Positions 46,615 to 63,289 of a DNA stretch of 64,000 bases are shown here, one piece after another; positions within the stretch are counted from its first letter, which is position 1, and each line of letters opens with the position of its first letter. The notes beneath the pieces are model-generated. The model was not told where the DNA came from, searched no databases, and worked only from the letters and a program-made list of their open reading frames with translations. Position numbers and translations under genes: made by a program. This DNA is from an uncultured delta proteobacterium (GTDB lineage: Bacteria > Desulfobacterota > Binatia > JACPRU01): positions 224,001 to 288,000 of the forward strand of contig CAVUWD010000006.1 in NCBI GenBank assembly GCA_963745025.1. Direction: 5' to 3'.

Positions 46615-46934
46615 GATGGCCGATTGTGGCTCGAAGCTCGGAAAATGACAATCGCTCGCCGCGAGGGCTCGCGACGCGGCGACCCGTGCACGGTTTAGGA
46701 ACGGGCATCCAACGCAGGGCCAATTCCTCCTCCGCGAGAAGAGGTAATGATCCAGCCCGCTGCTCGGCCGCGGGCGCCATCCGGCAGATCGCAGGGCGCC
46801 ACGTTCGAGTCGGCAGCTCCGGCGTCCAGACGATCTCCTGGCGGCAGTTCTGAGCGGCGGTCCCTTGACCTCGTCACCGCCATCAGAGACGGTACGCGGC
46901 GATCTCTGATGTGGAACGTTCCCGAAGACAAGCA

Positions 46935-47170
46935 ATAAAGGCCTCTGTCTTTGCCTTACCAACGCTCCGGCAAGACGGAACGTGCGGGCGGTTGTGGTCG
47001 ATCCGTACTCGGGTCGACCACAACCGCCCGCAACCACGCGGAGCGTGGAAGGAGCCGCATTCCGCGCTCCGCGCGGCGCCTGGATTTTCCGGTCGCCCCG
47101 AGTACGGGCCGATCGGAAAATCCAGCGCTCAGGAATCCCAAGCCTTGGAGGCAAAGACTGACGGCATTAC
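46935..47170 (+). mobile_element. MITE-like element, copy 1 (degenerate left end)
   Basis: Ends ATAAAGGCCTCTGTCTTTGCC and GGCAAAGACTGACGGCATTAC; flanking ACAAGC at 46928-46933 and 47171-47176; three internal hairpins; colinear with 60637-60880. Confidence 0.75.
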
Positions 47171-47227
47171 ACAAGCGGACGGGTTCCGGTTGATCTGACG
47201 GGCTATCGTCGGGAGGATGACGCCAAC

Positions 47228-59735: not shown

Positions 59736-60527
59736 TCAGGAACTTCCTTTAGCGGACGTCACTGATTTTGGCAACACACCATCGTGCGACAAGCCCCGAA
59801 TCAATTCGCGATGGACGGCCGCCAGGGCGCGGCGGCACTTTAGAGTGGCGGCCGCCAGCCGAGCGAGCTCGAGGATCAGCGCCGGCCTCCGTCCGATCGC
59901 GCGAAGCAGCAACCGAGCCGATGGGCTACCCGCATCGGTCGTGATCCCCGGGATCTCCGGCGGGAGTGACGTCTCTACCGGATCGAGAATCACCCGCGCG
60001 GCGGCGAACTCGATGCCGGCCGCTTGGGCCCATTCGGCAAGCGCCGCACCCTCCATTTCTACCGCCCGAGCGTTCGCTTCCTCGCCGAGGCGCCGCTTTT
60101 CTTCCGAACCCAAGAGCACCCTTGAGGTCGTCAACATGCGGCTCTCCCAGACGGGCACCCGGGCGTCTACCGCCGCCCTGCGGTAGCGCTCGCGCCAGGC
60201 GGCGTTGGTGGCGATCGCGCCCCCGCGAGCGTCGACGATCTCTTCGGCAACAACTACGTCGCCGCTACGGGGTCCCGCGACGAGTGAGCCGGCACAGCCG
60301 GTCGAAAGCACGACGGTCGGTCGCATGACCTCCGCCGCCCACCGAATCGCCGCCCTGGCACGTTCGGATCCCATTCCAGTTTGCAGGATCCACAGGCCTC
60401 GGTGCTGCTCGTTGCCCCGCAACATCCTAGCGCCGTCCTTGCGACCAAACGGAAGCGCATCGATTTCGCGAGCGATCGCAGCCCTCTCCCAACCCAGCGC
60501 AACGACGAACAAAATTCCGCATTCCAT
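59736..60527 (-). CDS. Nucleoside phosphorylase family protein, HpnG-like by context
   Basis: TGMG, STGCAGSL, AVEMEGAA and RVILD; directly upstream of hpnH. Confidence 0.78.
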   Translation of the reverse strand: MECGILFVVALGWERAAIAREIDALPFGRKDGARMLRGNEQHRGLWILQTGMGSERARAAIRWAAEVMRPTVVLSTGCAGSLVAGPRSGDVVVAEEIVDARGGAIATNAAWRERYRRAAVDARVPVWESRMLTTSRVLLGSEEKRRLGEEANARAVEMEGAALAEWAQAAGIEFAAARVILDPVETSLPPEIPGITTDAGSPSARLLLRAIGRRPALILELARLAAATLKCRRALAAVHRELIRGLSHDGVLPKSVTSAKGSS

Positions 60528-60636
60528 GAATTTGTTCTCTTTGCTTGTACCGCGGCGAAATCCGGGGTTCGGCTCACTCCCTATCGCGAAGCTGCAGAAT
60601 CGTCACGCGGAAGCGAGCTGGAGACTAACTCCCGCC

Positions 60637-60880
60637 GTAACGCCTCAGTCTTCGCCTCGAATGCTTCGGAACGACGAAGAGCGCGGTCGGTTGTGATCGG
60701 CCCGTACTCGGGTCGATCACAACCGACCGGAGCGCGGAAGCCAATAACCCACGAGATGGTCTATTGCTTTCCGCGCTTGCGCGCGGTGGCTGGATCTTCC
60801 GGTCGACCCGAGCACGGGCCGACCGGAAGATCCAGCGCTTCAAAAATTTCCAGCGCGTGTGGCCAAGACTGAGGCATTAC
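60637..60880 (+). mobile_element. MITE with IS66-type ends, copy 2
   Basis: TIRs GTAACGCCTCAGTCTTCGCC and GGCCAAGACTGAGGCATTAC (18/20); exact 8-bp direct repeat CTCCCGCC at 60629-60636 and 60881-60888; no credible CDS inside. Confidence 0.85.
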
Positions 60881-60960
60881 CTCCCGCCCGTCTCGCCCGG
60901 CTTCGAGCCGTCACACGGTGTTGACCGCGTTTTCGACGGCGCGTAGTCTTTCGCACCGAG

Positions 60961-63289
60961 ATGCAGCAACGCGCCCGGACCCCCCGCACTCGGCGCTCGA
61001 TCCGGGCTTTCCTCATGCGTGCTGTCCTCTTCGTCACCGCCCTGACGGCGATCACCGCCGCAGTGATCGGTTTCTTGGCTCTACGCGAGATTCGCAAAGA
61101 TCTTCCGCCCGTGCAGCAGCTCGCCGCGTACCGGCCCGCGGTCGCCTCTCAGGTCTACGCCGCAAACGGAGAGCTCGTCGGCGAGTTCTTCCTCGAAAAG
61201 CGCTACCTCGTCTCCCTCGACAAGATTCCGCTCGTCGTTCGCCAGGCGTTCGTCGCCGCCGAGGACTCGAACTTCTATCATCATCACGGCATCGACTTGA
61301 CCAGCATCGTTCGCGCGTTTCTGAACAACGTGATTGCGGGCGAGGTGGTGCAAGGGGGAAGCACGATCACGCAGCAGGTCGTGAAGTCGCTGCTGCTTTC
61401 GCCCGAGAAGAGCTACGAGCGAAAGCTGAAGGAAGTCCTGCTTTCACTGCGGCTGGAGCGACAGTTCACCAAAGACGAGATTCTCTACATCTACCTGAAC
61501 CAGATCTATCTGGGCTCCGGCGCATACGGCGTTGCCGCCGCCGCACAGGTCTACTTCGGCAAGGACGTGCAGGAGCTGACGCTGCCCGAGGCGGCGCTGC
61601 TGGCCGGTCTACCGCAAGCGCCGAGCCGCACCTCGCCGATCCACCATTCCGAGCGTGCTCGCGTCGCGGGAGCTCTACGTGCTCGAGCGCATGGAAGCCG
61701 CCGGCTACATCCCGCGCGAGCAGCACGAGGTCGCGGCCCGCATCCCGGTCCATGTCGTTGTCGGGCAGCGCCGCCAAACGTATCCTCACGCACCCGATTA
61801 CGTGGAGTACATCCGGCGCCTGCTCGAAGATCGGTACGGAAATCGTGCACCCTACGAGCTCGGACTACGCATCGACACGGCGCTCGACCTCGGCATGCAG
61901 CAGATCGCCGAGAAATCCGTACGCGATGGCCTGAAGGCACTCGACCGCCGCCGGGGATACCGCGGACCCACGCGACGCCTCTCGGAGGCCGAAGCGCAGC
62001 CCTTCCTCGACCAACAAGAGGCGACGGAGCCGAAGGACGGCTATCCCGCCGGGGCGACGGTCGAAGCGCTGGTGATCCGCGCGGCGGCAGACCACGTGAG
62101 GCTCCGAATCGGCGGGCTCGAAGCCGTGCTTCCGGCCTCCGGCATGGCATGGGCTCGCGGCTGGACACCGACACGATTCCGCCCCGGTGACCTGCTGTTG
62201 GTCAAGATCGAGAAGCGAACGACGAGCGCGTTGGAGGTCTCGCTCGATCAGGATCCCGACACCGAGGGAGCGTTCCTCGCCCTCGACGCGCGGAGCGGCT
62301 TGGTGCGAGCGATGGTCGGGGGCTACGACTACTCGCGGAGCCAGTTCAATCGGGCCGTCCAGGCCTATCGGCAACCGGGCTCGGCCTTCAAGCCGCTCGT
62401 TTACGCCGCCGCGTTCGATCGCGGCCTCACACCGGCCTCGATCGTCGTCGATTCCCCCATCGTCTTCGACGACGGCAGCAACCGGATTTGGAAGCCGGAG
62501 AACTACGAGCAGGAGTTTCACGGGCCCACGCGGCTGCGCGAGGCCTTGGTGCACTCGATGAACGTGGTAACGGTGAAGGTCGCACAGCAGATCGGGCTAG
62601 CCTATCTGACCTCGTATCTGCCGCGCTTCGGCTTCGATCGACCCTTCCCGCGCAACCTCTCGATCGCGCTCGGCAGCTCCGAAGTGACGCTACTCGAGTT
62701 GGTGCGTGCCTACGACGCGTTCGCGACCGGCGGCAAGCTCTACGAGCCGATCTTCATCACCCGCATCACCGACGCCGCCGGTAATGTGATCGAGGAGCGC
62801 CGGCCTTCCTCCCAAGACGTGCTCTCGCCCGAAACCGCTTACCTCGTCACCAGCATCCTGAAGAGCGTGATCGAGCGAGGGACCGGGCACCGGGCGCGAG
62901 CGCTCGCGCGCCCCGCGGCGGGTAAGACCGGGACTACGAACGATCAGATGGACGCCTGGTTCATCGGCTACACGCCAGAGCTGCTCGCCGGGGCGTGGGT
63001 CGGATTCGACGAGAAGAAGAGCCTCGGCAAGGAAGAGACCGGCGGCCGCGCCGCGGTCCCGATCTGGCTCGAGTTCATGCAGCAGGCCACCGAGACGATG
63101 CCGATCACGGACTTCACGATTCCGTCGGATATCGTCTTCGTGAACATCGACGGCAAAACCGGGCAGCGCGCCGTGCCGGGAGACGGGAACGTCATGCTCG
63201 AATGTTTCCGACGAGGTAGCGAGCCGGAGCAGATGGTGCAACGGGTTCAAGGCCCGCCGCCGGACGATTTCTTCCGCGGCGACTTCTAG
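60961..63289 (+). CDS. mrcA: Class A penicillin-binding protein 1A, one frameshift near 61660
   Basis: Transglycosylase motifs AEDSNFY, QGGSTITQQ and RKLKE; transpeptidase motifs PGSAFKP, SMN and GKTGT. Confidence 0.93.

Follow-up and report, generated by a model that had tools for sequence, protein, structure and literature searches.

A hairpin-rich 244-bp element bounded by IS66-type ends, its 8-bp target duplications and its family of about 90 copies in the genome of an uncultured bacterium

The window analysed here is a 64,000-nucleotide stretch of an uncultured Binatia bacterium (genome G000, contig C6, positions 224001-288000), and positions given without a contig name are those of the window. 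At 60637-60880 lies an element of 244 bp. It starts with GTAA in a left terminal inverted repeat (60637-60656, + strand) and ends with TTAC in a right one (60861-60880, - strand), and the two 20-nt repeats pair at 18 of 20 positions (90% complementary). The octamer CTCCCGCC directly abuts both ends as an exact 8-bp target-site duplication (60629-60636 and 60881-60888). All of these properties had been described in a first-pass annotation of the same DNA and were confirmed in the sequence. Being only 244 bp long, the element is too short to hold a transposase of its own. The annotation had also stated that the window lacks a transposase, which was borne out for the IS66 type alone: the IS66 transposase model PF03050 has four matches in the genome and none within the window.

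Three hairpins occupy the interior. H1 (60684-60729) has 21-bp arms that are 95% complementary, a 4-nt loop and a conserved tip. The central hairpin, H2 (60731-60777), is imperfect (21 nt, 81%), and H3 (60789-60836) has 22-bp arms, again 95% complementary, with a tip that is the inverted counterpart of the H1 tip. The H1 and H3 regions as a whole are 76% complementary to each other. Folded as single-stranded DNA, the element reaches -93.9 kcal/mol (z = -13.7 relative to 200 shuffles), with the two ends paired and the three hairpins, H2 included, branching off.

A second, older copy of the family is found at 46934-47170 on the + strand. It aligns colinearly with the focal copy at 73% identity over 248 columns, with most of H2 deleted and the left end decayed. 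The sequence ACAAGC flanks it at 46928-46933 and 47171-47176, and these six shared bases are compatible with a decayed 8-bp duplication. This copy and its flanks had been recognised at first pass as 46935-47170; the flanks stand as given, and the start moves one base earlier. Both window copies lie between divergent genes (a PNP_UDP_1 phosphorylase and a transglycosylase; a UvrD-type helicase and a phosphoglucomutase). Downstream of the focal element, a class-A penicillin-binding protein (60961-63289, + strand) is split over two frames, with its transglycosylase domain in ORF 60961-62190 and its OB and transpeptidase domains in ORF 61655-63289. This arrangement implies a frameshift between about 61660 and 61960, which is either real or a sequencing error.

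Genome-wide searches confirmed the high copy number that had been suspected from these two copies. The family comprises 88 loci by blastn and 94 non-overlapping loci by nhmmer, using a profile built from 15 full copies, in a 5.65-Mb genome of 20 contigs. This amounts to roughly one copy per 60 kb. Several sub-families are present, and most copies are 72-93% alike. The nearest relative of the focal copy in the genome is 92% identical to it, and an identity of 98% is reached within one sub-family having a different left end. While the terminal inverted ends are conserved across 40 aligned copies, the interior is modular, with hairpins individually lost in some copies or flipped.

Target duplications were scored automatically at the 33 loci whose match spans the profile from end to end. 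Six of these had an exact 8/8 duplication, and one a 7/8 match, at their predicted termini. Allowing a tolerance of ±2 nt gave nine exact duplications and four 7/8 matches, as compared with 0.1 and 0.56 per 33 in displaced-flank controls. The 8-bp duplication therefore recurs across the family, in 13 of 33 copies at 7/8 or better. The remaining 20 end-to-end copies had at most 6 of 8 matching flank bases in the automatic test. About nine of them belong to sub-family B, which has a different left end, and part of the weak scores arises because the model misplaces that end. When the seven complete copies of this sub-family were inspected by eye, most had 8-nt repeats and two had repeats of 9-10 nt, with a freedom of 1-2 nt.

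A search for an unoccupied version of the focal locus gave a positive result. Logan contigs from four public metagenome runs were mapped on 60200-61300 with a minimum likeness of 85%. A contig from run X4, a public soil metagenome, matches 60557-60628 and 60881-61154 with five differences (348 nt, depth 3.7), and its strain is about 98.6% identical in the flanks. The contig joins 60628 to 60881, skipping 252 bp that correspond to the element plus one duplication, and the eight letters shared at this joint fit either side of it. It is the precise single-target (empty) state in a near-identical strain, and as one low-depth contig it is good but not overwhelming evidence. A second contig, from run X2 (306 nt), has the same flanks and skips 51 nt holding H1, from which it follows that this hairpin module was lost in place.

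The first-pass annotation had assigned the ends to the IS66 type, and a search of the genome for an IS66 element with similar ends led to a cognate IS. Three of the four PF03050 matches belong to a single 1882-bp IS (C19:80230-82111, C6:484414-486295 and C6:486304-488185, in contig coordinates), the copies of which are 99.9-100% identical. Its 468-aa transposase exceeds the cut-off of 180 bits for NF033517 (IS66 family transposase), reaching 218.5, and additionally matches PF03050 and zf-IS66. The ends of the IS are perfect 19-nt inverted repeats beginning GTAAGGCCTCAGTCT, and it too is flanked by 8-bp duplications (AACGATCG for the C19 copy and CTTCTGGA for the second C6 copy). Of the first 15 bases in the left end of the 244-bp element, 14 agree with the IS end, and comparison over 20 bases gives 16 matches. 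We take the resident single-ORF IS to be of the ISBst12-like type, with the group name and the ranges of size and duplication following ISfinder usage. The published description of IS66 elements is in keeping with this, giving them terminal repeats of 20 to 30 bp that start with GTAAGCG, as well as direct repeats of 8 bp (PMC11946415).

The likeness between the element and the IS is confined to the terminal 17-20 nt, and their interiors are unrelated. We considered the element as a simple internal-deletion derivative of the 1882-bp IS and rejected this origin because the ends match at only 16 of 20 positions and similarity stops after about 20 nt. Upstream of the IS transposase is a 105-aa ORF (684-1001 of locus L003) that scores 27.0 bits against DUF6788, where the cut-off is 27.2, and may encode a small protein with an accessory or regulatory function in this IS group. 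Two of the IS copies stand head to tail (C6:484414-488185) and are 8 bp apart, with the same 8 bp (CTTCTGGA) following the second copy. Likewise, at C11:414169-414523 one copy of the short element abuts the start of another via its own 8-bp duplication, CTGATTCC. Such abutting pairs could reflect insertion directed to a site beside a resident end, a tandem-dimer intermediate or an assembly artefact.

Relatives of the IS transposase, at most 61% identical to it, occur in metagenome-assembled genomes of many phyla. In at least 20 of the 80 related loci that were kept, all from other phyla, the transposase is bracketed by inverted ends of the GTAA..CCTCAGT type. The end motif ..GCCTCAGTCT is common to the element, the resident IS and relatives in many phyla. 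Judging from these loci, GTAA..CCTCAGT ends are typical of the clade to which the resident IS belongs.

The family is thus short, has inverted ends and a recurrent 8-bp duplication, occurs in dispersed copies alongside an empty site, and lacks its own transposase. Its ends start with GTAA and duplicate 8 bp, and a resident transposase serves an IS with cognate ends. We consider it very likely that this is a non-autonomous MITE family moved via its IS66-type ends by an IS66-family transposase acting in trans. Mechanistically, the element would be a gene-less MITE carrying inverted repeats recognised by a single-ORF IS66-family DDE transposase, which would cut and paste, or copy, the element into new sites and leave an 8-bp duplication behind. 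Presumably the resident 1882-bp IS, or a closely related forerunner, is the actual driver. As for the hairpins inside the element, all three are probably structural baggage, their stems having been kept paired by compensatory change or by intrastrand template-switch repair. Much of the expansion may predate the resident IS because the IS copies are near-identical, and so recent, whereas the nearest relative of the focal copy is only 92% identical.

The distribution of the family among related genomes bears on the identity of the driver. The order is sampled by eight species genomes, all from one family, in which element matches number 87 in G000, 23 in its congener G001 and four weak ones in G005, a member of another genus. 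Among 41 relatives searched, 33 of which are from the same class, these three genomes alone gave matches to the element itself. A distant-mode blastn search of 72,556 plasmids with the element gave no match. The matching 1882-bp IS was found only in G000, and since the other assemblies are 65-84% complete, it may have been missed there. In the sister species G001, with an assembly that is 82% complete, we found a 2.4-kb IS66 element with other ends and no matching IS. The element is absent from G001 at both window loci, and the spacers there are 110 and 122 bp long versus 386 and 570 bp in G000. Coding flanks at these loci are 75-87% identical, and the G001 spacers are too diverged to provide a clean single-target copy.

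The presence of 23 matches in G001 together with only a differently ended IS66 element counts against the resident IS as the driver. It is possible, though we consider it somewhat doubtful, that a different IS66-type IS with exactly matching ends spread the family and is now absent or unassembled, with the resident IS being a later arrival. Such a history would account for ends that are identical at 16 of 20 positions rather than exactly, and for IS copies that are 99.9-100% identical when most MITE copies are 72-93% alike. It also fits the occurrence of even closer ends in other phyla: the first 15 bases of the MITE right end are identical to the end of the L019 IS, which comes from another phylum. 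Furthermore, the G000 assembly is 92.65% complete in 20 contigs. Against this history, the genome search turned up no further IS66 transposase associated with ends of this kind, and the 98% sub-family and the strain-level empty site point to activity late enough to have coincided with the resident IS. If the resident IS did arrive later, it may or may not cross-mobilise the family.

Ends of the same kind also bound short elements in other organisms. An exact search for the 20-nt end in JGI metagenome contigs returned seven stretches, one of which belongs to the same sub-family. Three others, at L150 7292-7427 (136 bp), L153 3932-4133 (202 bp) and L154 94-217 (124 bp), are short elements from other organisms with hairpin-rich interiors unrelated to the focal family, and the L150 element has an exact 8-bp duplication. 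Because same-ended short elements have unrelated interiors, MITE formation seems to be recurrent for this IS clade. A stronger version, which we regard as unlikely, holds that the clade repeatedly spawns hairpin-laden MITEs in unrelated bacteria and that the hairpins, through their conserved tips and invariably paired stems, aid mobilisation in a structure-specific manner, for instance with the transposase or a host factor binding them as cruciforms or single-stranded hairpins.

We next considered the hairpins across the family. Forty of the 52 near-full-length copies were aligned and folded with RNAalifold, with shuffled and slid controls. The consensus has 54 pairs, and 97.9% of its 2141 pair cells hold standard pairs. 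Both sides changed in 27 of the 54 pairs, as compared with a shuffle mean of 7.8 (none of 500 shuffles reached 27) and at most 11 in slid controls. H1 corresponds to helix 1 of this alignment (A1), with 22 pairs, 98.4% of cells paired and changes on both sides in nine pairs, and H3 to helix 4, with 17 pairs and both-side changes in 14. H2 was not predicted from the 40 copies, for which RNAalifold gave two short local helices at that place instead. The tips, CCCG-N4-CGGG, are conserved while the stems are variable.

Such strong conservation of pairing and of hairpin tips might suggest that the copies are primarily structured RNA or DNA regulatory modules under host selection, acting as terminators, mRNA stabilisers, sRNAs or protein-binding cruciforms, with mobility being secondary. 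Several results make this improbable. The commonest G-T wobble of H1 lies on the + strand, whereas its equivalent in H3 reads A-C on that strand and would be G-T on the - strand, which is what two mutually inverted tips would predict; the pattern hence favours neither strand as the transcript. Three of the 40 copies (H1 of L104 and L135, and H3 of L128) carry a flipped tip on an unchanged stem. These flips fit template switching at palindromes, a process that could also make compensatory changes without selection. Whole hairpin modules are dispensable as well, having been lost in some copies and, in one strain, in situ. Rfam covariance models gave only four sub-threshold matches to the element (17-24 bits versus gathering scores of 50-168), none above chance, and a consensus scan of its interior revealed neither a sigma-70-like promoter nor an intrinsic terminator pattern.

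Genomic location likewise argues against a primarily regulatory role. Genes were called with a home-made codon-usage caller (4722 genes, 78% coding) that has known miscalls, and the intergenic statistics are therefore approximate. Of the 94 loci, 91 lie outside predicted genes, whereas by the same calls a random 250-bp segment has a 53% chance of lying within one. These 91 loci are divided among 52 tandem, 21 convergent and 18 divergent intergenic regions, where the corresponding shares of intergenic length are 58%, 19% and 23%, and no class is enriched. Among the tandem cases, 26 copies run in the direction of the genes and 26 against it. The first-pass annotation had placed both window copies in divergent promoter regions and had suggested a regulatory role on that basis. 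The placement is correct for these two copies, but it does not extend to a genome-wide preference (18 of 91 loci as compared to 23% of length), and the proposed role is left unsupported by the lack of bias toward the divergent class.

The genome also contains a second, unrelated repeat of about 85 nt, with about 29 copies outside the window (C4, C17, C6:513-523k, C16:825-853k and C11:244-247k; loci L148 and L149). It has sharp boundaries on both sides, a single orientation per cluster, a spacing of 1.5-10 kb and an internal GTAA..CCTCA, and a search with Rfam yielded no match. It may mark a cassette boundary, act as a recombination site or form one end of a different mobile element.

The interior of the focal element had further been read at first pass as a captured REP/REPIN doublet, that is, as HUH-type cargo between DDE-transposon ends. 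Under this hypothesis, IS66 ends captured a doublet that a RAYT (HUH/Y1) transposase would normally mobilise, and two mobilisation systems act on the element. Certain features agree with it: the family is extragenic and abundant, as REP hairpins are; H1 and H3 are long hairpins in inverted orientation whose tips are inverted copies of each other; and there are two Y1_Tnp genes in the genome. However, a genome-wide scan for hairpins carrying the conserved tip plus 12 or more additional stem positions found 99, of which 98 were in family loci; the one exception sat between inverted ends of the same kind, in a pair spanning 159 bp, meaning that none is free-standing. The nearest family copies are 5 kb and 27 kb from the two Y1_Tnp genes, and no such hairpin occurs within 1.5 kb of either gene. 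One of the two Y1_Tnp proteins is fused to a DnaA-C-like HTH, which a plain RAYT is not known to have. The H1 and H3 stems differ and would not pair as one REPIN hairpin. Unlike REP/REPIN-RAYT systems, the family has inverted ends and 8-bp duplications, its hairpins never occur outside of inverted-end elements, and it has no Y1 transposase flanked by hairpins. Capture of a REPIN is therefore largely refuted already, and we give it hardly any credence.

Returning to a MITE family mobilised in trans by an IS66-family transposase, the element can be placed among known systems. With single-ORF IS66 elements of the ISBst12 group it shares GTAA inverted ends, the 8-bp duplication and the end motif; it differs from them in being 244 bp long without a transposase and in having an interior that is unrelated beyond about 20 terminal nucleotides. 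RIME and BIME elements resemble it as intergenic mosaics of large palindromes with gain and loss of modules. Neither is known to be delimited by ends of the IS66 type with 8-bp duplications, and both are set apart from the element here by description rather than by sequence. Further parallels are bacterial MITEs that a resident IS mobilises in trans, such as MITEPye1 of Paracoccus yeei, with IS1182-type ends (PMC11578231), and a Cardinium MITE of about 240 bp with IS982-type ends (PMC9769881). Both are likewise small and intergenic, with IS-type inverted ends, target duplications and strong predicted stem-loops. The present element differs from both in its IS66 parent family, its approximately 90 copies, and a modular three-hairpin interior that is lost or flipped piecewise. 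Our literature search found no IS66-derived MITE described in the texts examined; ISfinder and paper supplements were outside of its scope and may hold one. The element is real and an ordinary kind of mobile DNA, and its parent family, IS66, is one for which we found no MITEs described. On present evidence, it reveals no new mechanism or regulatory system.

Transposition of the IS66 family has, to our knowledge, been little studied, and its mechanism is poorly known. A 244-bp element and a single-gene transposase in one genome offer a compact natural IS66 substrate. In this uncultured soil or wetland bacterium, some 90 copies give rise to assembly breaks, to recombination and to polymorphism between strains. 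The hairpin modules also make a clean data set for studying how bacterial DNA retains, flips and deletes long palindromes. Should the hairpins prove to aid mobilisation, the family, with its flipped tips, compensatory stems and clean module loss, would also naturally record how template switching maintains hairpins, and would hint that IS66 transposition includes a step that depends on structure.
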